Positions 3,815 through 64,000 of a stretch of 64,000 nt of DNA are shown here, piece after piece. The notes beneath the pieces were generated by a model. The model made no database searches. It saw only the letters and a list, made by a program, of their open reading frames with translations, and was not told the DNA's origin. How positions within the stretch are numbered: the first letter of the stretch is position 1; each line of letters starts with the position of its first letter. The position numbers were made by a program, and so were the translations under genes. Source of the DNA: a virus (lineage: Duplodnaviria > Caudoviricetes); IMG/VR virus record IMGVR_UViG_3300035390_000014, positions 138,720-202,719 of that record. The stretch is one strand, 5' to 3'.

Positions 3815-4255
3815 ATGATTGAATCTAAACTAGTGAAAATTAAGAAATTACATAAAGATGCTATTATACCAAAATATCAAACAATAGGTTCTGCTGGATT
3901 TGATTTAAGTTCTATTATTGATTGTAAACTTTTTCCAAATCAACAAGAGTTAATCCCAACAGGACTTTCCGTTGAAATCCCATTAGGGACTGAATTACAA
4001 ATTAGACCTAGAAGTGGACTTGCTAAAAATTCTATGATATCAATAACTAATTCACCAGGTACATTAGATTCAGACTATAGAGGTCCTATAGGAATCATTC
4101 TTATAAATCATAGTCCTTTTGTTTTTGAAATAAAGAAAGGTGATAGAGTAGCTCAAGCAGTATTATGTCCAGTGTATCAAGCTAACTTTGAAGTTGTTGA
4201 TGAACTCTCAAACACAGACCGTGGAGAAAACGGTTATGGAAGCACTGGTAAATAA
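3815..4255 (+). CDS. dut: dUTPase (trimeric)
   Basis: GSAGFDL, QIRPRSGLA, PGTLDSDYRG, GDRVAQ, RGENGYGSTG motifs. Start moved to 3815 because the ORF-track start lies inside the tRNA. Confidence 0.95.
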   Translation: MIESKLVKIKKLHKDAIIPKYQTIGSAGFDLSSIIDCKLFPNQQELIPTGLSVEIPLGTELQIRPRSGLAKNSMISITNSPGTLDSDYRGPIGIILINHSPFVFEIKKGDRVAQAVLCPVYQANFEVVDELSNTDRGENGYGSTGK

Positions 4256-4329
4256 CACTCTTTTTTAGAACAAATTATAAATGGTTATAGGCCCGAATTA
4301 AATTTATAATTTGTTTAAGGGAGCGTTAA

Positions 4330-4638
4330 ATGGCTAAAATTGGTAAAAAACGTCTAACTGGAACTAAGTTAAGAGATTACAATTTTATTCACTCACAAAA
4401 AAGAGCAAGACAAAGATATAATTTAGTTATATCTAGATCTAATTATGAACAGCTCTGTACGGAGATAAAACAAAAAAAATTTGTATCTCTAACGCGCACC
4501 TATAAAAAGAGTTATCAAGAAGTATACAAAGTTAAGTTTAAAAATACAACCTTGTATGTATTATATAAAGAAGATGGTAATAGAATAACAACAATGTTAC
4601 CTTTTCAAAGATTTGAAAGATTAAAAAAAGAAGCATAA
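4330..4638 (+). CDS. hypothetical basic protein
   Basis: AAGGGAG RBS; promoter motif at 4267-4282. Confidence 0.6.
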   Translation: MAKIGKKRLTGTKLRDYNFIHSQKRARQRYNLVISRSNYEQLCTEIKQKKFVSLTRTYKKSYQEVYKVKFKNTTLYVLYKEDGNRITTMLPFQRFERLKKEA

Positions 4639-4644
4639 TTAAAT

Positions 4645-4727
4645 GCAGAAGTCGGTCAACGGTAGATCACCTGCCTTCCAAGCAGGCGCTTTAAGCATTG
4701 CGGGTTCGATTCCCGTCTTCTGCTCCA
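4645..4727 (+). tRNA. tRNA-Gly(TCC) with extended variable region
   Basis: Acceptor GCAGAAG/CTTCTGC, anticodon arm CCTGC-CTTCCAA-GCAGG, 13-nt variable region, T-loop TTCGATT, CCA. Confidence 0.85.
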
Positions 4728-4746
4728 AAATAAAGATGAGGTCGAT

Positions 4747-4959
4747 ATGAAATTTGAATTAATTGGTGATGAACTAAGATCATTTCAACAATGGAATAGT
4801 GAACATAAGAAAGTATGTAAATTAATAAACGGTGAAAATCAGCCTGCTATTGGCGGTCGTCTAACATTTTCATTTACTCCAACTGGTTTAGGTCCAGCGA
4901 TCAGTGTAAAATGCGCTTGTGGTGAGATGCATAATTGCACTAATTATGATTCCTGGTAG
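4747..4959 (+). CDS. hypothetical protein
   Basis: GAGGT RBS; FSFTPTGLG...CACG motif. Confidence 0.65.
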   Translation: MKFELIGDELRSFQQWNSEHKKVCKLINGENQPAIGGRLTFSFTPTGLGPAISVKCACGEMHNCTNYDSW

Positions 4960-5023
4960 TAAACTATATATATTAATATACATAATATAATAAGTATTTG
5001 TATATTAATTAAAGGAGATTAAT

Positions 5024-5935
5024 ATGAAAAGACAAGCGTTAGTAGATCAATTCAAAAAGGTTGGATTGGTGCTAAAAATTACCAATGGTCCGATTGGTAG
5101 AACAACAAATGATGATATCTTTCAAATGGACGTTGGTCGTAAGGTCACTGGAACAAGACGTATTGAATGGTTTGAAATCTGGCCTGGTCATGATGATAAC
5201 AAAATTCAAATTCTTGATATTGACAATAAACTTAATCAGGTTCTTCTTTTGGTTCATGAACCTGAAAGAATTTTTGAAACAGAAGAGAAAAAGCAAACTG
5301 GAAAATGGAGAGATACTCCAGAAGAAAGAAAACAATGGTTTGAAAACAATAGAGTTAAATATCGTGAAACTGAAACTCATTTCTATATCATTGAAAAATC
5401 TCCATCTTTTGTTAGGCATTTTCTCATGGGTGTTGATGAACGTCAACTTTTTGTTGCTCAACTCATTAATGGAACAACATCTATTAATGAGGCAAGAAAA
5501 CAATTAGGAAGTAGTGTTAAGTTTCATGAAGGTGTTAGAAAAATGTCACCTAAACGTCAAGGTGAATGGTTCTTTCTTAGAGCAACCAGAAAACAAGAAG
5601 ACTTGATTGATTTGTTAATTCAAAAAAATAAAGCATGGATTGTTAAAAAAGCCAATATTGGTGCTTATTCAGGTAAGCCAAGAGGTAATCCACATGTTGC
5701 TGATGAATTAGTTGTAATTAATGTTCATCCTGAATCTCTTGAAAGACTTGGTTGGTCTAAAAATAAACGTAAGAGAAATCCTAGAAGAGGAATTCCTATT
5801 AGAACAACCCAGGTTTATGTTCGTGGTGCCATTAGGCATATTGATCATAAAACTATTAAGTATTCTCATTGGTATCAGGTTGTTCTTAACAACGAAGGTA
5901 ATACTGAAAGTGCTACTCAAAGCTGGATAGATTAA
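5024..5935 (+). CDS. hypothetical phage protein
   Basis: 303 aa ORF with AAGGAG RBS; no function recognised. Confidence 0.75.
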   Translation: MKRQALVDQFKKVGLVLKITNGPIGRTTNDDIFQMDVGRKVTGTRRIEWFEIWPGHDDNKIQILDIDNKLNQVLLLVHEPERIFETEEKKQTGKWRDTPEERKQWFENNRVKYRETETHFYIIEKSPSFVRHFLMGVDERQLFVAQLINGTTSINEARKQLGSSVKFHEGVRKMSPKRQGEWFFLRATRKQEDLIDLLIQKNKAWIVKKANIGAYSGKPRGNPHVADELVVINVHPESLERLGWSKNKRKRNPRRGIPIRTTQVYVRGAIRHIDHKTIKYSHWYQVVLNNEGNTESATQSWID

Positions 5936-5943
5936 ATTAAATA

Positions 5944-6018
5944 GGTGGTATGGTCCGAGAGGCTAGGCACTGGATTGCAAATCCAGATACGTGGGTTCGA
6001 CTCCCTCTACCACCTCCA
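5944..6018 (+). tRNA. tRNA-Cys(GCA)
   Basis: Acceptor GGTGGTA/TACCACC, U73 discriminator, anticodon arm CTGGA-TTGCAAA-TCCAG, CCA. Confidence 0.9.
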
Positions 6019-6030
6019 ATTAAAAGGTGA

Positions 6031-6630
6031 ATGATGAAATCTCAAGTAATGGAATCGTTGGATTTAAAGATTACTGGACATTTGAATTTATTTAAACTAA
6101 CGTATGAGAATAAGAATGGGGATATAAAACCTTGGTTATTGGCATCCAGAAAAAGTGTGCCTAAAGTAATGTCAAGAGATTTTTCTCCGGATGCAGTTGT
6201 TATAATGGCTATGGTGAAAGAAACGCTTGAGTATGTTATTCTTAGAGAGTATCGACCAAGTGTTGATGGGGTAATGATTGAATTTCCAGCCGGGAAAATT
6301 GATCCTGGTGAATCAATTGAGGATGCTGTTAGAAGAGAATTAAAAGAAGAAACAGGGTTTGACTTAGTAGGAATAACACATCAAAGTCCGCCCTTATATT
6401 CATCCTCAGGAATGACAGATGAATCAATAGTGTTTGTTAAATGTATGTGTGAAGGCGAACTCTCAATAGACGGTCTTGAGGAATCAGAAGAGATTCAACC
6501 TTTTACATGTAGTCCTCTTTATCTTCAAGAACTCCTACATGAAGAAAATGTTTTCTATGATGTTAGGTTGTGGATGGCACTTAATACTATTGATATACCA
6601 AGGAACATTACAGGGGTTAGAAATAGATAA
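6031..6630 (+). CDS. Nudix hydrolase (ADP-ribose pyrophosphatase-like)
   Basis: Nudix box EFPAGKIDPGESIEDAVRRELKEETG; upstream REYRP and downstream SSSGMTDE are typical of the ADPR-PPase subfamily. Confidence 0.85.
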   Translation: MMKSQVMESLDLKITGHLNLFKLTYENKNGDIKPWLLASRKSVPKVMSRDFSPDAVVIMAMVKETLEYVILREYRPSVDGVMIEFPAGKIDPGESIEDAVRRELKEETGFDLVGITHQSPPLYSSSGMTDESIVFVKCMCEGELSIDGLEESEEIQPFTCSPLYLQELLHEENVFYDVRLWMALNTIDIPRNITGVRNR

Positions 6631-6807
6631 AAAAGAATAAAAAAGGGTTGCTCATTTAGGACTCTTTTTTTTTTGTATAAATTTTGTGAGATAGAAACAT
6701 AAACATATAGAACATATTATAAATGATAGAGTCGACTATAAAATAAATAAATTACCATATCTGAGTTGGTCGCAGATTCAAGGTATTAAATTAAGGAAAT
6801 AAGTAAC

Positions 6808-7008
6808 ATGGCACAAGGAACAGTAAAATGGTTTAACGACGAAAAGGGTTTTGGATTCATTGAAAGAGATGGAGCTCCAGATGTATTTGTACATTATTCA
6901 GAAATTCAGAGTAATGGTTTTAAAAAATTAGAAGAAGGCGATAAGGTCTCTTTTGATGTAGAAGAAGGTACAAAAGGTCCACAGGCTAAGAATGTAATCA
7001 AATCTTAA
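6808..7008 (+). CDS. cspA: cold-shock protein
   Basis: [24 protein letters not shown] and KGPQAKNV motifs. Confidence 0.97.
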
Positions 7009-7017
7009 AGGTGAATC

Positions 7018-7263
7018 ATGGGTGATTGGAGTGTTCCAATATCAATAATAGCGTTATATATTGCTATGTTTATATTTGCAATATTGTGGTTTGAAGAAAT
7101 TTTAAAAATTAAATTTTATTGTCAACTTTATTTAACAATAACTTGTACTGCAATACTTTGGTGTTTTTATTTAGGAAGCAAAAGTTATACAATAATTTAT
7201 TCTTCAAATAAAGATGAAGCAGGTGTTAAACGATTTATAGAATTTCCAATCATCTGGATGTAA
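7018..7263 (+). CDS. small membrane protein
   Basis: Two hydrophobic segments. Confidence 0.55.
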   Translation: MGDWSVPISIIALYIAMFIFAILWFEEILKIKFYCQLYLTITCTAILWCFYLGSKSYTIIYSSNKDEAGVKRFIEFPIIWM

Positions 7264-7265
7264 TA

Positions 7266-7371
7266 TGTAATATACAACCACGTTGAGGGATGAAAGATTC
7301 CCAAAGTTGAAATCCTTAGGGAGACGAGATATCAATGAACCCTTTGAAGTAAGTAAACTACGTGGTTTACA
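7266..7371 (+). ncRNA. candidate structured ncRNA
   Basis: Terminal stem AACCACGT/ACGTGGTT (7276-7283 with 7360-7367); internal GAGGGATGAAAGATTCCC hairpin. Confidence 0.35.
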
Positions 7372-7433
7372 CATTAGAAATTTTCTTTGACATATAGAAC
7401 ATATTATAAATGATGAATTTATATAGGTGATAT

Positions 7434-7931
7434 ATGTATGAATGTTATAAATGTGGAAGAGAATTTAGTAAAGCTGAGGGGTTATCCAAACATGTAAAAT
7501 CATGTGTTGGTAAAAGGTATTGTAAACAGTGTGGCATAGAAACAAAAAATCCAAAATTTTGCTCATCTAGTTGCGCTGAAACTTATAACAATACTCAGTA
7601 TTTATTAGAAACAAAAAAAGAAGAGGCAGTATCTTATGAACTATCTGCTAAACCTTATTTTGAATTATCAATACATGACAGAAAAGAAATTTTATGGCTT
7701 GAACAAAAGCACAAATGTTTGACTTGTGAATTTGATTTGTATGATCCTATAAATGTACCATATGAAATATATCATGTAGATGGTAATGATACTAATAAAC
7801 AAAGATCTAATGAACAATTGTTATGTTGCAATTGTTATAATATGAAACCAAATTATAGATTCAAAGGTATAAAGCATACTAAAGAATCTAAAAAAATAAA
7901 GAAAAAGATGTTAACAATTATGCCCCTATAG
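7434..7931 (+). CDS. Zn-finger plus degenerate HNH endonuclease (free-standing homing endonuclease-like)
   Basis: CYKC..HVKSC finger; CLTC...YHVDGNDTNKQRSNEQLLCCNC; promoter motif at 7396-7411; stop codon lies inside the next tRNA. Confidence 0.7.
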   Translation: MYECYKCGREFSKAEGLSKHVKSCVGKRYCKQCGIETKNPKFCSSSCAETYNNTQYLLETKKEEAVSYELSAKPYFELSIHDRKEILWLEQKHKCLTCEFDLYDPINVPYEIYHVDGNDTNKQRSNEQLLCCNCYNMKPNYRFKGIKHTKESKKIKKKMLTIMPL

Positions 7932-7996
7932 CTCAGCGAAAAGAGCATGAGGTTTCTACCCTCTGTGCGCAGGTTTGATTCCTGCTAGGGGTTCCA
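7922..7996 (+). tRNA. tRNA-Arg(TCT), somewhat non-canonical
   Basis: Acceptor GCCCCTA/TAGGGGT, anticodon loop TTTCTAC, T-loop TTTGATT instead of TTCGATT, CCA. Confidence 0.65.
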
Positions 7997-8013
7997 TTTT
8001 TAAAAGGTAGATT

Positions 8014-8217
8014 ATGAATAAGATAACAGTTTTATATTGGATAGGATATAATTATTCAGATATAAATATAGACCATGAACAATCATATGACTATTCAGAA
8101 AAAACAAAAAATGAACTTATCAATCTATTTTTAGGTCACGGTCATCATGTAATGTTACAACAACGAGATGAAACATTATTAATATCAATAGATGATCGTC
8201 AATTTAAACAAAGATAA
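8014..8217 (+). CDS. hypothetical protein
   Basis: ORF track; AAGGTAG RBS. Confidence 0.55.
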   Translation: MNKITVLYWIGYNYSDINIDHEQSYDYSEKTKNELINLFLGHGHHVMLQQRDETLLISIDDRQFKQR

Positions 8218-8229
8218 AAGGAGGTCAAC

Positions 8230-8283
8230 ATGAAAAAAATGTATTGGAAAGGTAACTGGGCATAGGTAAATAGACCACCCTAA
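8230..8283 (+). promoter_or_regulatory. leader peptide MKKMYWKGNWA(TAG)VNRPP-stop
   Basis: Strong AAAGGAGGT RBS; in-frame TAG at 8263-8265, then GTA AAT AGA CCA CCC TAA. Confidence 0.55.
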
Positions 8284-8356
8284 TACAAAGTATAATTTAT
8301 ATTAACGACTAAAATCTAGTTAAAACAAATTATATTTATTATTAGGAGAACTACAA

Positions 8357-8686
8357 ATGACTTTCAAAGAATTAAAAAACAGTATCAAAAAACAATTAAA
8401 AGAAACAGCTAACACTATTCGTATTTTAAAAGCAGCAAGAAAACCTCATGTCTATAATAGCAACCCTGCATTATATGATAAGTTAGGTGATCTAGATTCA
8501 CTCAGGTATAGTATAAGACATAAACACATTGCTTATTGCATGTTTTTCAATGGAACTGAATATGGTGATATTGAAAGAAAATGTAATGAGAGTCCATACA
8601 TTGGTAGAATTGATCAGTATAAAAAAGAATGGTCTTATATTGTGGAGGCGAATCAAGATGCAAAAACTGTACGTGATAGTGCGTAA
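8357..8686 (+). CDS. hypothetical protein overlapping the Pth2-like gene
   Basis: AGGAG RBS; RHKHIAYC motif. Confidence 0.7.
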   Translation: MTFKELKNSIKKQLKETANTIRILKAARKPHVYNSNPALYDKLGDLDSLRYSIRHKHIAYCMFFNGTEYGDIERKCNESPYIGRIDQYKKEWSYIVEANQDAKTVRDSA

Positions 8687-8948
8687 GGATCTAAGTCCTT
8701 CACAAATAGCTGTTCAAGCAGGTCACGCAGTAGCAGAATATTTAGTTAATGATTCAAAGACTTGGAAAAATGAGATCCTAATTTATTTGGGAGTTCCTGG
8801 TCTTAGACAGTTACATAGATGGATGATGAAACTTGATAATCAAGATGTTAAATATACTGCATGGCGAGAACCTGATATTAATAATGAAGTGACAGCAATA
8901 GCAAGCACTGGTTCAAGTGAATTTTTTAAAACATTGAACCTATTATAA
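8658..8948 (+). CDS. peptidyl-tRNA hydrolase type 2 (Pth2)-like protein
   Basis: KLYVIVRKDL, AVQAGHAVAEY and WREPDINNEVTAIA motifs. Start moved to ATG 8658 (GGAGG RBS). Confidence 0.75.
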   Translation: MQKLYVIVRKDLSPSQIAVQAGHAVAEYLVNDSKTWKNEILIYLGVPGLRQLHRWMMKLDNQDVKYTAWREPDINNEVTAIASTGSSEFFKTLNLL

Positions 8949-9024
8949 GCCGGTGTAGCTTATTGGGAGAGCCGAGAACTCTAAATTCTTGATTGAGTAA
9001 GTTCGATCCTTACCATCGGCACCA
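8949..9024 (+). tRNA. amber suppressor-type tRNA (anticodon CTA)
   Basis: Acceptor GCCGGTG/CATCGGC, D arm GCTT..GAGC with GG, anticodon arm GAGAA-CTCTAAA-TTCTT, T arm GTAAG-TTCGATC-CTTAC, A73, CCA. Confidence 0.85.
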
Positions 9025-9052
9025 AAATAATAATCATCCTGGGGATTAAAAT

Positions 9053-9688
9053 ATGTATTATACACTTTATAAAACTACCAATATATTAAATGGGAAATTT
9101 TATATTGGGTGTCATAAAACAAATGATCTCCATGATGATTATATTGGTTCAGGCAAATATTTAACTAATTCTATTAATAAATATGGTATAGAAAATTTTA
9201 TCAAAGAAATAATGCAATTATTTTTTTCATCTGAACAAATGTATGAGATGGAAAGTTTATTAGTTGATGAAAAATTTGTTGAAAGAAAAGATACTTATAA
9301 TTTAAAAGTTGGTGGTGAAGGCGGTTTTGATTATATTAATGAAAATGGATTAAAATGTAAAACTCCTTTTATGTCTGATGCATTTATTAATGCTAGAGAA
9401 AAAGTAATATTAAAAAGAAAAACCGATCTTGAATATGCTAAACAACATTATAAAAAAACAAGAGAAGGTTTAAAAAAATATTATAAAACTAATTATAATG
9501 CATTTAAAAATCAACAACATACTGAAGAAACAAAAAAGAAAATAGGTTTAAACACCTCTTTTCATCAAAAGGGTAAAAAAAATTCTCAGTATGGGACAAT
9601 GTGGATAACCGATGGTATTAATAATAAAAAAATAAAAAAAGTTTCTATGATTCCAGAAGGTTGGAATAAAGGTAGAAAATTGAAATAA
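9053..9688 (+). CDS. GIY-YIG homing endonuclease with NUMOD3-like segment
   Basis: LYKTTNILNGKFYIGCH, YIGSG, YNLKVGGEGG and HTEETKKKIG motifs; lies between two tRNA-type genes. Confidence 0.88.
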   Translation: MYYTLYKTTNILNGKFYIGCHKTNDLHDDYIGSGKYLTNSINKYGIENFIKEIMQLFFSSEQMYEMESLLVDEKFVERKDTYNLKVGGEGGFDYINENGLKCKTPFMSDAFINAREKVILKRKTDLEYAKQHYKKTREGLKKYYKTNYNAFKNQQHTEETKKKIGLNTSFHQKGKKNSQYGTMWITDGINNKKIKKVSMIPEGWNKGRKLK

Positions 9689-9767
9689 GTCCCTGTATAC
9701 CCTCTGATTACGAACCAGATGAAAGGTTAACGGACACATGGAGGTTCGAATCCTCTCAGGGATACCA
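9689..9767 (+). ncRNA. tRNA-like RNA lacking a D arm (ACG anticodon-like loop, long extra region)
   Basis: Acceptor GTCCCTG/CAGGGAT plus A-CCA, T arm with TTCGAAT loop, TCTG..TTACGAA..CAGA arm only ~7 nt after the acceptor strand. Confidence 0.6.
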
Positions 9768-9936
9768 AAAGTAAGCACCGGAGTTATCGGTGAAAAGATT
9801 GCTGGTGGAAGTCAACATGTTCATGCGATGGGGTTTAATTGGAGGGTATCTACGAATGCCCTCCAATTATTCCGTTGGAAAATTTATACAAAAAAAAGAG
9901 ACTTACCACATATGTAATGTGTGCTCTTTTTTTGTA

Positions 9937-57562: not shown

Positions 57563-57645
57563 AATTGTAGAATTTAGTGGTTTTTACCACTTTAAAAACT
57601 TAAAAGTTTAAAAATTCACTAGAAAGAATTTAATTGGAGGAAAAT

Positions 57646-58455
57646 ATGGGAAATCCAATTCCTATTCAGGAAAGAAGTGTTGATCCTTATTCTAGTTATA
57701 ACTCAGATGTGGTAAACAAACTCACTAGAATTGTATCAGATGGTAAGAATACTTTATTAATGCCATCTCCAATATATGTTGAAATTGTTGATAATACTCA
57801 TGTTATGGCTAAAGCAGGTAAGGCAATAATGGATGATGTATTAATTGAAATAGAAGATTTAAGTGTAGATATGACCGATGGTTCTTTCTATCTCAATGTT
57901 GGAACTGGAACATGGGACGAATCTGGATATTATTATGTAGTTTTAGATTATCAGTATAATAAAATTTCGCCACCACCAGAGGCAAGTATAAAACTTATTA
58001 AACCATCCCAAAGAGGATCTTTATATGATCCATTATTACATTTATTTATATCCGCTATTTATGTAACAAACCCAGGTGGTGGATATGAAGTAAATGCTAT
58101 ATTTGAATATGATCCTGATAATCCATCTATTGCAAGAGAAGCAGTGGGTGGTGGTAGTCCTGGTACAACAGTTGTATATACTGAACTTGCATCTGGCAAC
58201 CATGAAGCTACTACTAATGATGATACTATAGTTATTGATACGTCACTTGGAAATGCTACTATTATATTACCATTAGCATCTACTTCAGAGCGTATGATTA
58301 GAATAGTAAAATTAACACCTGATGCTAATACGATAACAATTGAAGCTTACCCGGGTGACAGCATTGAAGGAAACGCATATAAAGTGTTATCTAATCAATA
58401 TGATGCTATATCAATAATACCATACCCAACAAATAATGTTTGGATTGAGGTATAA
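57646..58455 (+). CDS. probable virion (tail/baseplate-associated) protein
   Basis: Beta-rich; C-terminal DTIVIDTSLGNATIILP..MIRIVKL..NTITI module as seen in tail-fibre proteins. Confidence 0.55.
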   Translation: MGNPIPIQERSVDPYSSYNSDVVNKLTRIVSDGKNTLLMPSPIYVEIVDNTHVMAKAGKAIMDDVLIEIEDLSVDMTDGSFYLNVGTGTWDESGYYYVVLDYQYNKISPPPEASIKLIKPSQRGSLYDPLLHLFISAIYVTNPGGGYEVNAIFEYDPDNPSIAREAVGGGSPGTTVVYTELASGNHEATTNDDTIVIDTSLGNATIILPLASTSERMIRIVKLTPDANTITIEAYPGDSIEGNAYKVLSNQYDAISIIPYPTNNVWIEV

Positions 58456-58466
58456 GGAGGGTAACG

Positions 58467-58991
58467 ATGGATTATAAACATAGAAATGCAGTTAGTAAAG
58501 TTGCACACACAACAAGTGTAGGAAATGCAACATTTGATATTGGTAGTGGATTAACTGATAGATTTAGAAAAATTTATTCTCAAAACTTTGAAGGTGATAC
58601 ATCTGGTGCCTATTACGCTGATCTTGCAGAAAAATATACAGTAGACCCAGAAATTGAATTATCTATTGGAACTTTAATTGAAGTTTCTGATAGTGATTTT
58701 GATGCTGAGTTATGTGACACACCATTATCTCAACATGTTATTGGAGTTATATCTGAGAGTCCTGGTTTTCTAATGAATAAAGGATTAGAAGATAGTGCAG
58801 TTGTTGGTTTAGTAGGAACACTTCCAATTAAAGTTATTGGACCTGTTATGAAAAAAGATATATTAGTTTCTGCAGGTAAAGGTTGTTTAAGAGTGGCAGA
58901 AACAGAAGACGAATATAAATATAAAGTAGCAATTTCATTTGAAACAAATGATAACTATAATGAAAAATTAGTTAAATGTTTTATTAAATAA
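58467..58991 (+). CDS. protein with a tail-fibre autoproteolytic chaperone (peptidase G2-like) domain
   Basis: YADLAEKY, GVISESPG, VGLVGTLPIKV and GDIL-like KDILVS motifs. Confidence 0.65.
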   Translation: MDYKHRNAVSKVAHTTSVGNATFDIGSGLTDRFRKIYSQNFEGDTSGAYYADLAEKYTVDPEIELSIGTLIEVSDSDFDAELCDTPLSQHVIGVISESPGFLMNKGLEDSAVVGLVGTLPIKVIGPVMKKDILVSAGKGCLRVAETEDEYKYKVAISFETNDNYNEKLVKCFIK

Positions 58992-58995
58992 AGGA

Positions 58996-60111
58996 ATGGC
59001 GATGAACTTTGAATTTCAGTTAGTTTTGACAGAGAAATGTAATTTAAGATGCACTTATTGTTATATGAAAAAAAATCCTAAAGATATGACCAGGGCTATA
59101 TTTCATAAACATTATGACATGCTTCCTCATATGATGAAGAAGTATAATAAAACAACATATACAGCAGCTCTATTTGGTGGGGAACCATTATTAAATTGGG
59201 ATCTTATAGAATATATAACCCCAATTTTAAACAATGATCCTAAATGTAAACATATAATTATTATGTCAAATTGTATTGAATTGCAAGATGCTCATAAAAG
59301 AAAATTTTTAGAAGATAATAGAATAGCAATTTCAATGTCGTTTGATGGTTTATGGAATGAAACAAACAGACCATTACCTGGAGGTAAATCAAGTTTACCT
59401 ATTTATATGACTGAACCATTAAAATCTTATTTTACTGGCAAAGGCAGTTGCAAAGTTATGGTAGCTCCATCAAGTGTTCCAACAATGGTAAAGAATTTTA
59501 TTTGGTTTGTTGAAGAATATGGGATGCCATCTCCTGATTTTACATTAGTTAGAGATGATGTATGGACCAAAGAAGATGTTCAATTATTTGCTATAGAAAC
59601 TGAAAAATTAGCTAATGTTATAATTGAATATTTTAATAAAGGTAAGAATGTTATGGCCGGTTTTTTCTTACTTTATATTCTTGATTTAATGTTTGGTGAA
59701 TCATATGGAAAAAGACCTCATGGGTGTTTCGCTGGTTGTCATGGAGCGGGATTTATGCCTGATGGAAAAATTTATCCATGCGCTAGATTTGGTAGCAATG
59801 AAAAATTCCCGATTGCTGATTCAATTGAGAAAACTATTTATAGTACTTGTGATAAAATGAAAATCTCACAATTCTATAATCCTGCAACTTTTACTAAATG
59901 TCAAGAATGTGTTCTAAATAAATATTGTAATGCTGGGTGTAGCTTTCAACAACTTAAACCCGGAGGAAAAGAATTTGAATCAGCCCCAGTAGATAGCATA
60001 TGTGAATTATTAAAAATATGCTATAGTCAGTCAATGAGAATTACTAGAGAATTAAAAGACAACAAATTGTTTGTTGAAATGATCAAAAACTCAATTAAAA
60101 ATGTAGGCTAA
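58996..60111 (+). CDS. radical SAM/SPASM peptide maturase 1
   Basis: LTEKCNLRCTYCY, LFGGEPLLN, SFDG; SPASM GCFAG..IYPCARF..CQECVLNKYCNAGC..C. Confidence 0.9.
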   Translation: MAMNFEFQLVLTEKCNLRCTYCYMKKNPKDMTRAIFHKHYDMLPHMMKKYNKTTYTAALFGGEPLLNWDLIEYITPILNNDPKCKHIIIMSNCIELQDAHKRKFLEDNRIAISMSFDGLWNETNRPLPGGKSSLPIYMTEPLKSYFTGKGSCKVMVAPSSVPTMVKNFIWFVEEYGMPSPDFTLVRDDVWTKEDVQLFAIETEKLANVIIEYFNKGKNVMAGFFLLYILDLMFGESYGKRPHGCFAGCHGAGFMPDGKIYPCARFGSNEKFPIADSIEKTIYSTCDKMKISQFYNPATFTKCQECVLNKYCNAGCSFQQLKPGGKEFESAPVDSICELLKICYSQSMRITRELKDNKLFVEMIKNSIKNVG

Positions 60112-60129: not shown

Positions 60130-60612
60130 ATGGAAATTTTAAACGAAAAAGAAACTGTTATTTTTAAATCTGCAGAAACACTTCTGAATGTATCAACTTC
60201 ACTTAGAGAAATCAATCCTGACGTTGCACAAGCGGTTTTATTTTTGAGTGATAGACTTTTAAAAGCAGTTGAATTAGAACCTGTTACAGTAGAATCTGCT
60301 GCAGTAGAACTTGTTAATGTATGTAATGATGAATTATGTCCTGATTGCGGTGGTATTAAACAAGTTCAACATATTGTATGTAATGATGAATTGTGCCCTG
60401 ACTGTGGTGGCATTAAACAAGATGATATTGTAATTCTTGATCAAAAAGAATCTGTCGATGAATCTACTAACTGTCATGGTCATCAAGCTGATGGAACAGG
60501 GACTGGGCAAACTCAATCTCAAATGAATAAACAAGGTCCTAATAATCATGTTAGTTCTAATATTAAAAATGAGATTCAAGAAATGATTAATGAAATTAGA
60601 GGTACACTTTAA
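60130..60612 (+). CDS. accessory protein with a duplicated CNDELCPDCGGIKQ motif
   Basis: AAGGAG RBS; internal 14-aa repeat; polar C-terminus. Confidence 0.7.
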   Translation: MEILNEKETVIFKSAETLLNVSTSLREINPDVAQAVLFLSDRLLKAVELEPVTVESAAVELVNVCNDELCPDCGGIKQVQHIVCNDELCPDCGGIKQDDIVILDQKESVDESTNCHGHQADGTGTGQTQSQMNKQGPNNHVSSNIKNEIQEMINEIRGTL

Positions 60613-60614
60613 TT

Positions 60615-61646
60615 ATGGAAATAACTCAAGAAGAGATTGATGGTTTTTTTGGAGATATTAAAGAAATGTTTACTAAAAAAGAAATTAAAAAAGAATGTGA
60701 TTTAAAATGCAATGGTTGTACTTTGAATGCATGTAAAACTAACTCTTCTGTTATTACCCCTATAGAACCTACCAACACATTAAATACTAAAGTCAAAGAT
60801 AAATCAGGAACTCAAAGAACAAATGTTATTTATCTAAACACAGATTGTAATTTAAGATGTGAGTATTGCTATGAAGGTAATAGTAGAAATGGTTTACCTG
60901 ACCAAGCAAACTGTAAACCTAAAGATGTAGATGCATTTTTAAATGAAATAGTAAGTAGAGAAAAAGGTTGCATTTCAACAATTGTTATAATGGGAGGAGA
61001 ACCATTTCTTGCATTTGATATGATATTATACACAATGTATAAAGCTGCATCACTTACTAAAATAAAAGGAAATGGGTGGGGAATTAGTGTTGTAAGCAAC
61101 GGAACTTTATTTACTAAAGAAAAATTAACTAGGTATAAAGAAGCCATTGATAAAGTTAGTAAATACCATGTTAATATTTCTCAAGAAGTTAGTTATGATG
61201 GTAGTGGTCATTGGAAAAGAAAATGGCCGGATGGTTCTAATTCAAGACCACAAGTAGAAAAAGGGATTCAAAAATTAATTGATTTTGAAATTCCTTTTAA
61301 AATTAGTTATGTTGCTCATTCAGGTAATTATGATAGTATTGTTAAAGATTGTATTTATATTCTTGAAAAGTGGCCCAGACCTTATCCATATCGTATTACT
61401 GTCGGGTGGGCATATGAGGAACTGGATAAAGAACTTGGCCCAAATATGGCATTTAAATTAAAAGATGAGTTTAGACCCTATGCCATAAGATTACTTGATT
61501 TGTATGGTACTCCTATTTGTGGAAATACATGCGGATATTGTACTAAATGTAACCAAGAGAATTTTGTAGGAAATTCATATTTATCACCAACTACTGGCAT
61601 TTCGTATGATAATAAAACAACAGAACATAGCTTTAGACAATTTTAG
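60615..61646 (+). CDS. radical SAM protein 2 with extra terminal Cys clusters
   Basis: YLNTDCNLRCEYCYE, MGGEPFL, SNGT, SYDG; N-terminal CDLKCNGC and C-terminal CGNTCGYCTKC. Confidence 0.88.
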   Translation: MEITQEEIDGFFGDIKEMFTKKEIKKECDLKCNGCTLNACKTNSSVITPIEPTNTLNTKVKDKSGTQRTNVIYLNTDCNLRCEYCYEGNSRNGLPDQANCKPKDVDAFLNEIVSREKGCISTIVIMGGEPFLAFDMILYTMYKAASLTKIKGNGWGISVVSNGTLFTKEKLTRYKEAIDKVSKYHVNISQEVSYDGSGHWKRKWPDGSNSRPQVEKGIQKLIDFEIPFKISYVAHSGNYDSIVKDCIYILEKWPRPYPYRITVGWAYEELDKELGPNMAFKLKDEFRPYAIRLLDLYGTPICGNTCGYCTKCNQENFVGNSYLSPTTGISYDNKTTEHSFRQF

Positions 61647-61657
61647 GAGAGACCCCG

Positions 61658-62818
61658 ATGGCAAGTCAAAATCAGCAAGGTTTTAATAACGTAAAGATTT
61701 ATAGTATAGATTTAACAACTACAGATGATTGTAATTTTAATTGTAGTTATTGTTTTGAACATGGATATTTTAATAAAAATTATTTTGATAAGGTTGATTT
61801 ATTTATTCAACGAATGAATGAATTAATGGATTCTTTCTTTTTTAAATCCAATTATCAACTTCTTGGTATAGGATTTTGGGGTGGGGAACCAACTCTAAAT
61901 GAATCAGCTATAAAAAGATTAATTAAATATTATGGAAATGATGATCGAGTTAAATTCTTTATATATAGTAATGGTTCTAATATTGATCCATATATGGAAG
62001 TGTTAGAAAAATATAAAACAAAAACTTTATTTGGACATCCAAAACTTTGCATTCAAATGTCATATGACGGAATGCCTGTCCAAGATATTTGTAGAAAAGA
62101 TAAAGCTGGAAAATTAACATCATCAATGGTTAGATCTAATATTGAAAGATTATATAAAAGTAGAATACCTACTGTTATTAAATCTACTATTACTCCTGAT
62201 GCTGTTAAATATCTTCCAGCAGCTAGAAGAGATATTTTAGATTTAGTTAATAGTGGTGAAAATAATTTTTTTAGAAGCACAAATTTTTTCCCAACTATTG
62301 ATTATTATCATGTTGAAGAAATCAGTGATGTTTTGATGGAACAATATTTAATTGAATTAAAGAAAAGTTTAATTGAAATAGCTAAAGAAGAAATTGATTA
62401 TGCTAAGAATAATAATGGTCGTTTCTTTTTTGCATGGTTTAACCCTGGTAGGGCATTATGTTGTGCTGGGCGTGATATGGTTTGTATTAATTGGGATGGA
62501 AATATATTTAAATGTCATGGTTCAGTATATGAAGATGGAAAAGGTGAACATTTTTTAACTAGTTTAGATGATGATAATTTCATTGAAGCATTAATTGAAT
62601 CAAATAAAACACATAATACTAATTTTGGCGTTGAACCAGAAGAATGTAGAAACTGTGAGGCAACTTATTGTTTAAGATGTAATTCAGTTAAATATAATTA
62701 TAGTAAAAAAGATACTTACATTGAAAAATGGAGAGATTATTCTGACCAACCAAATCTATGTAAGTTTTATAAATTAAATGGCAAAATAGTTCATGCTATT
62801 AATGAGCTATTGAAATAA
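61658..62818 (+). CDS. radical SAM/SPASM peptide maturase 3
   Basis: TTDDCNFNCSYCFE, FWGGEPTLN, SNGS, SYDG; SPASM CCAG..GNIFKCHG..CRNCEATYCLRC..C. Confidence 0.9.
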   Translation: MASQNQQGFNNVKIYSIDLTTTDDCNFNCSYCFEHGYFNKNYFDKVDLFIQRMNELMDSFFFKSNYQLLGIGFWGGEPTLNESAIKRLIKYYGNDDRVKFFIYSNGSNIDPYMEVLEKYKTKTLFGHPKLCIQMSYDGMPVQDICRKDKAGKLTSSMVRSNIERLYKSRIPTVIKSTITPDAVKYLPAARRDILDLVNSGENNFFRSTNFFPTIDYYHVEEISDVLMEQYLIELKKSLIEIAKEEIDYAKNNNGRFFFAWFNPGRALCCAGRDMVCINWDGNIFKCHGSVYEDGKGEHFLTSLDDDNFIEALIESNKTHNTNFGVEPEECRNCEATYCLRCNSVKYNYSKKDTYIEKWRDYSDQPNLCKFYKLNGKIVHAINELLK

Positions 62819-62832
62819 TTTGGGGGTTAAAT

Positions 62833-63570
62833 ATGGGATGTACTGCACATACTAATACCACAGCTTGTACTGCACATACAGCGACTACAACTTGTGCCAC
62901 TCATGTAACAGGTCCTTGTGTACATGCAGAAACAACTACATGTGTAGCTCATGTAGAACTTGGATCTTCAGCTCCGCCTGGCACAGCTACTGTATGGACT
63001 GATGATCCTCTGACAACTTCTATTAAAATAAAACAAGAGCATCATAATGAATTAAGAGCTGCTATTAATACTGAATTACTTAGTCAAGGAAAAACCTGGC
63101 CAATTGATCCTGGTTATGTTTCACGTGGTATTAACAAAGTATTATATACCCATGTAAGACAATTAAGAGATGGGATCGATGAAGCTCAGGCATGGAGTTA
63201 TCCTTCTTACTTATCTGATTCATATACTGAAGTTGGAGATAAGGTTCTTAAGGATCAATATACTGCATTAAGAAGTCAAGTTAATTCAATAGAAACTGGT
63301 TGTCCTTGTGATTGTAATTATGGTTGTACTTGTCAATGTAATTATGCTTGCACATGTCAATGTAATTATGCTTGCACATGTCAATGTAATTATGCTTGCA
63401 CTTGTGATTGTAACTTCACAGTTTGTAGTTGTGATTGTAATTATTGCACTTGTAATTGTAACTATTGTACATGTGATTGCAACTATTGTACATGTGATTG
63501 CAACTATATTTGCACATGTAATTGTGCCTACTCTGATAAAAGACTAAAAACTGAAATAATTTATATGTAA
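62833..63570 (+). CDS. Cys-rich repeat protein A (putative radical SAM substrate, 35 Cys)
   Basis: N-terminal Cxx(x)H repeats, a central WTDDPL..HHNELRAAI duplicated helical module, ten CxCxC units and an SDKRLK tail. Confidence 0.85.
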   Translation: MGCTAHTNTTACTAHTATTTCATHVTGPCVHAETTTCVAHVELGSSAPPGTATVWTDDPLTTSIKIKQEHHNELRAAINTELLSQGKTWPIDPGYVSRGINKVLYTHVRQLRDGIDEAQAWSYPSYLSDSYTEVGDKVLKDQYTALRSQVNSIETGCPCDCNYGCTCQCNYACTCQCNYACTCQCNYACTCDCNFTVCSCDCNYCTCNCNYCTCDCNYCTCDCNYICTCNCAYSDKRLKTEIIYM

Positions 63571-64000
63571 ATTATTTAAAAATATACGGAGGACTATTTA
63601 TGGCATGCACTGATCATACAAATACTACAACATGTGGTGCTCATGCTGCAACTGTAGCCTGTACAACTCATTCTAATACTGTCACATGTACTAGTCATAC
63701 TAACGCAACTTGCACATGTAATTGTAATTATGCTTGCACTTGCCAATGTAATTATTCTTGCACTTGTGATTGTAATTATGCCTGTACTTGTCAATGCAAT
63801 TATGCTTGTACTTGTCAGTGTAACTATTCTTGTACTTGTGATTGTAATTATTGCACTTGTGATTGTAACTATTGTACTTGTGATTGTAACTATTGTACTT
63901 GTAATTGTAACTATATTTGTACATGCAATTGCGCATATTCAGATAAAAGACTAAAAACTGAAATAATTTATATGTAAATTATTTAAAAAATATACGGAGG
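63535..64000 (+). repeat. near-perfect direct repeat (63535-63592 and 63942-64000) covering the gene tail, spacer and next RBS
   Basis: GATAAAAGACTAAAAACTGAAATAATTTATATGTAAATTATTTAAAAA(A)TATACGGAGG occurs twice, differing by one A. Confidence 0.9.
63600..63977 (+). CDS. Cys-rich repeat protein B (putative radical SAM substrate, 34 of 125 aa Cys)
   Basis: GGAGG RBS; four CxxH repeats, ten CTCxC(N/A)Y units, tail identical to protein A. Confidence 0.88.
   Translation: MACTDHTNTTTCGAHAATVACTTHSNTVTCTSHTNATCTCNCNYACTCQCNYSCTCDCNYACTCQCNYACTCQCNYSCTCDCNYCTCDCNYCTCDCNYCTCNCNYICTCNCAYSDKRLKTEIIYM

Follow-up and report, generated by a model that had tools for sequence, protein, structure and literature searches.

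What role may be played, in a phage genome, by two cysteine-repeat proteins encoded directly behind three radical S-adenosylmethionine (rSAM) enzymes? The question is raised by a stretch of 64,000 nucleotides (the window), corresponding to the 3' end of a 202,719-bp viral contig, IMG/VR record IMGVR_UViG_3300035390_000014. The contig has a GC content of 30% and an estimated completeness of 65% (CheckV), and the sequence is present in sediment metagenome runs. The window ends with an operon, entirely on the + strand, in which the gene order is rSAM1, a 160-aa Cys-motif protein, rSAM2, rSAM3, gene A and gene B. The products of the last two genes, proteins A and B, are part of a widespread, previously undescribed phage module, composed of a Cys-heptad fibre-type protein, a fused or split S74 chaperone domain and three radical SAM enzymes; a literature search found no paper describing this combination. 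On balance, A and B are probably fibre-type proteins of an essentially phage-only family, with a cysteine stalk cross-linked by the three rSAM enzymes.

Architecture of proteins A and B

Cysteine accounts for 14% of A and 27% of B, compared to a genome median of 1.6%, and is arranged in a pattern which is far beyond chance. The segments of the two proteins are listed in Table 1. Both open with Thr-rich repeats of about nine residues, with five Cys in A and four in B, as already counted in the initial annotation of this DNA. In B the Cys residues are at positions 3, 12, 21 and 30, always in CxxH motifs, with a spacing of 9; in A they are at positions 3, 12, 21, 29 and 37 (CTAH, CTAH, CATH, CVH, CVAH), and the spacing (9, 9, 8, 8) drifts to 8. 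A 27-nt period is detected in both genes by Tandem Repeats Finder.

Towards the C-terminus a re-count confirms exactly ten CxCxC(N/A)(Y/F) units in each protein, the last one being ICTCNCAY. Longer units precede shorter ones, as previously described, but the division is different: six longer units, rather than five, are followed in each protein by three 7-aa units and by a terminal unit of 8 aa. Codons vary between units (TGT/TGC, ACT/ACA, AAT/AAC), in agreement with a pattern maintained at the protein level. Yet two adjacent unit pairs in A are nucleotide-identical, which suggests that recent slippage or duplication also acts in its array.

The region of about 110 aa found only in A had been described as an insert with a duplicated helical module. 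It is indeed absent from B, but contains three x-LR-xx-I helices, not two, and is modelled by AlphaFold2 (AF2) as a three-helix domain with a predicted local distance difference test score (pLDDT) above 90. This domain is conserved as the core of nearly all relatives, which suggests that B is a deletion form that lost it, rather than A having gained an insert. No clear solved fold is found for it: Foldseek retrieves nothing from PDB at E<=0.001, a profile search against PDB gives no match, and the best VIA-align score (Z 7.5), obtained on generic bundles of helices, does not exceed the noise expected of helical models.

A and B are tandem paralogues. Their arrays are colinear unit for unit, with a DNA identity of 84%; the segments coding for the C-terminal stub described below are identical in 38 of 39 nt, and the gene tail running into the spacer is identical over 48 nt between the two copies. 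The contig stops 23 nt past B, within the A/B spacer, which occurs there for the third time. Another contig, found in three sediment runs, has 30 nt in common with the head of A (62867-62896) and then continues with another C-x-H Thr-rich sequence: this diverging contig is either a third paralogue or a strain variant of A/B. Because of this contig and of the third spacer copy, the array of genes probably continues beyond the assembly break. Contigs from the three sediment runs show no unit-number indels; being fragmentary over the repeats, they do not prove that the number is stable.

The S74 junction, fused or split

In both proteins the terminal ICTCNCAY unit is directly followed by SDKRLKTEIIYM. 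The first residues of this segment, SDKRLK (residues 234-239 in A, 114-119 in B), form an SDxxxK motif, with its Ser and Lys, right after the array, and align with the start of the S74 domain of fused relatives. In four longer family members (P0098, P0087, P0104 and P0060) the Pfam Peptidase_S74 domain starts exactly at the SD following the last unit. A and B end 12 residues into this domain (PF13884): the stub, SDxRLKxxIxY, contains the Ser and Lys of the cleavage dyad, while a complete body, scoring over the Pfam cut-off, is in neither protein.

For several relatives ending with the same stub, the rest of the S74 domain is found in a downstream gene of 87-98 aa. In L005 and L006 the open reading frame (ORF) after the stub protein aligns with positions 16/20-57 of the S74 profile, scoring 22.2 and 30.9 bits, respectively (cut-off 22); the corresponding ORF in L017 aligns like these bodies, but at only 14.3 bits (E 0.05). 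Stub plus body are colinear, when aligned, with fused S74 domains. Four stub paralogues followed by a single body gene are found in L027, while in L029 stub, fused and stub paralogues precede the body gene. In many members the chaperone is split in this way: the Cys protein keeps a stub of about 12 residues, and the separate downstream gene, of about 90 aa, provides the remainder. A body gene serving up to four stub paralogues would be a testable variation on the textbook self-cleaving chaperone.

These alignments argue for A and B as members of an S74-terminated fibre-type family, not free peptides, a point missed by the initial annotation. As reportedly described by Schulz et al. in 2010, the S74 chaperone drives the folding of a trimeric beta-helical stalk, and is afterwards released by self-cleavage at the Ser. 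By analogy, the position of the Cys array, just before S74, suggests that it may be a trimeric stalk. The K1F/NF endosialidases and the L-shaped fibre protein pb1 of T5 likewise feature an SDxxxK junction straight after the stalk. Compared to classical S74 fibres and spikes, the A/B family differs both in the putative stalk, formed by a Cys heptad array, and in the separation, in several relatives, of the domain into a stub and a body gene. Classical S74 fibres are not known to have an rSAM partner.

The Cys-heptad family and its unit numbers

A search of 1.8 billion protein representatives, at E<=1e-3, identified 225 cluster representatives related to A and B. Repeats were counted in the best 150 of the 225. 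The unit consensus is C-T-C-(N/D/Q)-C-N-Y, with an optional one-residue spacer (A, S or G); besides the three Cys, N6 and Y7 are conserved in 89% of units each. The units number 2 to 18, most often 4 (64 of 150 representatives), and ten units are found in 6 of 150. Copies of CxxH range from 0 to 9, with none in 96 of 150. At IMG/VR loci the units are 3 to 28, including 3, 6, 9, 17, 18 and 28, the latter at one locus. In the closest relative, L056, where rSAM1 is 58% identical and the operon fully syntenic, the two paralogues have 7 and 6 units.

Ten had been regarded in the initial annotation as a fixed count, a view to be given up if the unit number varied freely in relatives and neither repeat class was modified. 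The number does vary freely, and the fixed count does not hold. The equality of A and B may be explained by descent from a single ten-unit ancestor gene, with 3'-end conversion, since the two arrays are colinear and similar in DNA sequence. Another explanation is that ten units are held by selection, as a ruler, because the paralogues assemble together, for instance into a heterotrimer, and need stalks of equal length. A and B do in fact agree in how many long and short units they have, and in the order of these, despite 16% DNA divergence in a slippage-prone array, and equal counts are found among the paralogues of L027 (4,4,4,4) and L029 (4,4,4). Four is the family mode, however, which makes these two loci uninformative, the paralogues of the closest relative differ in number, and common descent accounts for the equality: selection for ten units is very unlikely. 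Ten is a lineage accident, of no consequence, as the unit number is a free, slippage-prone variable, and both repeat classes are variable-number modules.

The family is large and almost purely viral. The nearest ESM Atlas clusters are 98-100% viral; a DNA pattern for CTCNCNYSD has no match in 185,579 cellular genomes, among which the heptad DNA pattern matches only 7 contigs of metagenome-assembled genomes. Five of the 7 have a called Cys-repeat ORF, adjoined in 4 of the 5 by rSAM1/2/3 orthologues.

Homologues reach 534-682 aa, with extra globular domains. The build of the family is modular: a head of 0-9 CxxH repeats, which may be missing, is followed by a three-helix domain, a heptad array of variable length and an S74 chaperone. 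Among described protein families, A and B match phrog_26958 (the CP220 gp140 type), with E 7.6e-16 and 4.9e-11, in the heptad region only (profile positions 276-338). Neither has a Pfam match, and searching NCBIfam with A, B and six relatives, up to E<=10, yields no target family. One relative, P0038 (520 aa), features after its Cys array, instead of S74, what looks by eye like a Hint/intein-like start (CFLAGTPVL...), unconfirmed by Pfam, which gives no match.

Linkage with radical SAM genes

The CX3CX2C motif is present in rSAM1, rSAM2 and rSAM3, and all three score over the cut-off for Pfam Radical_SAM. The CX2CX5CX3C SPASM motif is complete in rSAM1, where the Pfam SPASM score is nonetheless below the cut-off (16.3 vs 21.5), and is found as a variant in rSAM3. 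The radical SAM motif starts at residue 15 in rSAM1 and at residue 25 in rSAM3, with no N-terminal extension before it. Curated models giving the best scores are those of thioether-forming maturases: PapB (NF047865; 123.6 for rSAM1 and 81.6 for rSAM3, cut-off 340) and SCIFF/CteB (TIGR03974; 88.3 for rSAM1, cut-off 425). Scores are lower for the CXXX-repeat maturase TIGR04115 with rSAM1 (82.6, cut-off 350) and for the CrpC family TIGR04463 with rSAM3 (39.8 bits, cut-off 525). The solved structure closest to rSAM1 is that of CteB (5WGG).

Orthologues of rSAM1, 2 and 3 adjoin the Cys protein in most IMG/VR loci. Every distant family member with enough context is also flanked by radical SAM genes, and orthologues of the three enzymes surround distant four-unit members, with or without a fused S74. 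The linkage was analyzed reciprocally, by collecting loci from an rSAM1 alignment, defining as orthologues those with E<1e-60, and looking for a Cys-heptad protein within 8 kb: this is found at 23 of 28 rSAM1-orthologue loci, and at 2 of the 50 whose viral rSAMs are more distant. From such tight reciprocal linkage, it is likely that A and B are substrates of the upstream rSAMs, as initially supposed.

It had also been suggested that the two motif classes are handled by different maturases. This receives no support, as no enzyme tracks CxxH: the full rSAM1+2+3 set is kept in many loci without any CxxH (L025-L029, L036-L038, L061-L085), and in two CxxH-bearing loci (L032 and L034) no rSAM2 is found nearby. 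Three enzymes for the three Cys of each heptad may be guessed as a simpler reading than one enzyme per motif class.

Cys and His repeats may otherwise be seen as ligands for metal or iron-sulfur (Fe-S) clusters in a trimeric needle, as in metallothionein or at the tip of T4 gp37 with its HxH iron sites; the repeats would be unmodified, and the rSAMs would serve another substrate or deliver the clusters. Both CxCxC and CxxH are spacings typical of ligands, a trimer would offer six ligands in each 9-residue repeat through its three CxxH, and CrpA, an archaeal Cys-repeat protein discussed below, is also suspected of metal binding. Such a needle is nevertheless unlikely. The linkage of the Cys proteins to SPASM orthologues of the peptide-modifying type is specific and reciprocal, and Pfam and NCBIfam give no metallothionein or Fe-S family match for A and B. 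Asn and Tyr are also strongly conserved in each unit, which is untypical of metallothioneins. Metal binding and cross-linking are compatible, and not mutually exclusive.

In L056 (12874-15016), in L020 (12181-16271) and in the P0104 contig, the Cys-repeat genes are followed by further radical SAM genes and by sugar-enzyme-like genes (polysaccharide deacetylase, methyltransferase, NodZ-like). On one contig nine Radical_SAM genes are found in 13 kb. An additional decoration of the Cys-repeat proteins by the products of these genes is possible.

Fibre genes and virions

A fibre gene of the G2-chaperone type is located upstream of the rSAMs, both here and in relatives. Its homologue in L011 is a single 537-aa protein, while here the gene is split in two parts (57634-58455 and 58467-58991), 12 nt apart: this is a second fibre/chaperone split in the same operon. 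In L009 the upstream fibre gene (3895-9918) codes for a 2007-aa collagen-repeat protein, ending in a G2-chaperone-like domain. A very long collagen-repeat protein with the same G2-chaperone-like end is also found in L040 (3-2876). In both L009 and L040 the collagen-repeat gene directly precedes the Cys-heptad gene, stopping 2 nt from its start.

Outside uncultured phages, the family is represented by gp140 (CPT_0180) of Campylobacter phage CP220. When A was compared to GenBank phages by tblastn nothing was found, probably because low-complexity sequence is filtered out; the way to CP220 was provided by rSAM3, which is 34% identical to a radical SAM gene near gp140. Like A and B, gp140 features CTCDCNY heptads (six full CxCxCNY units and a seventh, truncated to CTC), an rSAM3 orthologue nearby and an rSAM1 orthologue in the genome. 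It differs in length (534 aa), in its large N-terminal domain and degenerate CxC tail, and in the absence of an S74 stub. A protein 94% identical to gp140, the product of gene 3-9 of phage IBB_35, was detected by mass spectrometry in purified virions, with 2.6% coverage (PMC3322345, Table S2).

The module is dispersed in the Campylobacter phage lineage. At L074 (Campylobacter phage CPt10, 9788-26858) a clear rSAM1 orthologue (E 6e-81) is about 140 kb away from the heptad protein. In the 2010 description of CP220, by Timms et al., the heptads appear only as an intragenic repeat of 21 bp, and 11 radical SAM genes are left unexplained (PMC2853527). The group II phages (Firehammervirus CP220, CPt10 and IBB_35) carry 11-12 radical SAM genes, treated as metabolic and not linked to gp140 (PMC2853527, PMC3322345).

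Fibre genes and virion detection also bear on the possibility that A and B are free peptides made by the ribosome and modified after translation (RiPPs), with the CxxH head and helical domain as leader and the Cys array as core, matured by the rSAMs and released, instead of being built into the virion. The layout does resemble that of leader and core, SPASM maturases are adjacent, B is only 125 aa long, and a genuine CXXX-repeat RiPP system is organized along similar general lines. That system includes an ABC transporter, whereas neither protease nor exporter is seen in this cluster or in the examined cassettes of relatives. Moreover, the cluster lies behind fibre genes, the C-terminus is an S74 fibre-chaperone junction, homologues are as large as those with extra globular domains mentioned above, and one of them is detected in virions: a free RiPP is quite improbable.

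A proposed stapled stalk

In the mechanism proposed for the fibre-type reading, the S74 chaperone would fold the Cys array as a trimeric stalk, and the rSAM trio would act on the three Cys of each heptad before or during assembly. The most likely product would be thioether (ranthionine-type) cross-links to neighbouring Asn, Asp or Thr, and the outcome a covalently stapled fibre end. A more detailed version, to be regarded as tentative and rather doubtful, adds to a stapled trimeric virion stalk a stub acting in cis with a body acting in trans and shared by paralogues, and a CxxH head forming Cys3His3 metal sites on the trimer axis.

Several observations weigh against a stapled fibre stalk. One family member, the 17-unit protein of L004, has no rSAM gene within 10 kb on either side. 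In CP220 the nearest rSAM gene is 2 kb from gp140, and the rSAM1 orthologue is elsewhere in the genome. The virion evidence is limited, consisting of 2.6% coverage of a distant, 534-aa homologue. In the AF2 model of A the repeat array has a pLDDT of about 50: the stalk fold is unsupported by modelling. An S74 body gene is found neither in this contig (65% complete) nor in the record of the closest relative (L056/G404, 66% complete): the stub of this lineage may be vestigial, unless a body that is not seen here pairs with it. Finally, the chemistry is unreadable from homology, because rSAM scores are far below every curated family cut-off.

Comparison with known systems

The closest precedent is archaeal. 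CrpC, a SPASM enzyme from Methanococcus voltae, has been shown experimentally to put ranthionine links on CrpA, a 28.8-kDa Cys-repeat protein (PMC13692751). Phages are not mentioned in that paper, published in 2026 (PMC13692751). By analogy, CrpA provides a precedent for protein-sized rSAM substrates. In both systems a SPASM gene lies beside a protein-sized substrate, with a C-terminal tandem Cys motif and a paralogue sharing its N-terminus. The motifs are different: in CrpA a 17-residue motif, with CxxQ/D, is repeated ten times, while the A/B family features the CxCxCNY heptad. CrpC/CrpA is also cellular, with one enzyme, no S74 junction and no fibre context, while three enzymes are present in the phage.

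The ranthipeptide/SCIFF systems PapB/PapA (freyrasin) and CteB/CteA, in which side-chain thioethers link Cys to Asp or Thr on repeated Cys motifs, provide the best models for rSAM1 and rSAM3; their substrates, unlike A and B, are short exported peptides. In the CXXX-repeat system (TIGR04115/TIGR04119), likewise, a SPASM maturase is coupled to a target with tandem Cys repeats. Formally, an 8-residue unit of A or B may be read as two CXXX repeats, and in a viral ESM Atlas cluster near the model PF27846 (CXXX target, Pfam 38.1) is found in 58% of members. A genuine CXXX example, G132, shows a layout unlike that of A/B: its peptide, of 57 aa, contains four CXXX repeats, and is accompanied by an ABC transporter and by a fused maturase of 728 aa.

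Thioether stapling by rSAM enzymes is thus known for small secreted peptides and, only since 2026, for a single archaeal protein, CrpA. Should the trio act on a phage fibre protein, this would be a new kind of virion maturation, where RiPP chemistry is applied to a structural protein. It would also provide a function for many unexplained radical SAM genes, in the Campylobacter group II phages and in many uncultured ones, and a new fibre stalk design, based on a 7-residue unit with three Cys.

Features of the window

Coordinates of the operon, of its subdivisions and of the other relevant features are reported in Table 1.

Table 1. Features of the window related to the cysteine-repeat proteins A and B; positions are those of the window.
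Feature	Coordinates	Strand	Evidence
tRNA-Cys (GCA)	5944..6018	+	
Fibre-body-like protein, 273 aa	57634..58455	+	comparison with relative L011
174-aa protein, like the C-terminal Peptidase_G2-type chaperone end of tail fibres	58467..58991	+	weak Pfam match; PHROG tail fibre match
rSAM1: radical SAM with full SPASM Cys motif	58996..60111	+	curated models, structure search
160-aa protein with duplicated CNDELCPDCGG motif, between rSAM1 and rSAM2	60130..60612	+	
rSAM2: radical SAM with N-terminal Cys cluster and short C-terminal Cys motif	60615..61646	+	
rSAM3: radical SAM/SPASM-like, stops 14 nt upstream of gene A	61658..62818	+	
Gene A, 245 aa: CxxH head, three-helix domain, ten Cys units, S74 stub; stop codon TAA	62833..63570	+	family alignment
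A residues 1-41: Thr-rich ~9-residue repeat, five Cys (four CxxH, one CxH)	62833..62955	+	27-nt period
A residues 45-155: three-helix domain, WTD...HxNELRxAI and two further x-LR-xx-I helices	62965..63297	+	AF2, relatives
A residues 156-233: ten CxCxC(N/A)(Y/F) units of 8,8,8,8,8,9,7,7,7,8 aa	63298..63531	+	
A residues 234-245: SDKRLKTEIIYM, first ~12 positions of the Peptidase_S74 chaperone domain (stub)	63532..63567	+	alignment with fused/split relatives; Pfam on relatives
Spacer with ribosome-binding site, recurring after B	63571..63599	+	
Gene B, 125 aa: CxxH head joined directly to ten Cys units, then same S74 stub; stop codon TAA	63600..63977	+	
B residues 1-36: four CxxH repeats, exact period 9	63600..63707	+	
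B residues 37-113: ten Cys units, six of 8 aa followed by three of 7 aa and a last one of 8 aa	63708..63938	+	
B residues 114-125: S74 stub	63939..63974	+	DNA comparison with A
Third spacer copy, at contig end	63978..64000	+	

The tRNA-Cys mentioned in the initial annotation is present. A second tRNA, with anticodon CTA (8949-9024), is labelled by ARAGORN as tRNA-Pyl, of the amber suppressor type. The recoding of TAG, suggested by its anticodon, was considered and rejected: 21 of 151 long ORFs still terminate at TAG, and little is gained by reading through it. As for the 160-aa protein with the duplicated CNDELCPDCGG motif, a small ORF is found at the same position in L007, L020, L056 and the P0104 contig.

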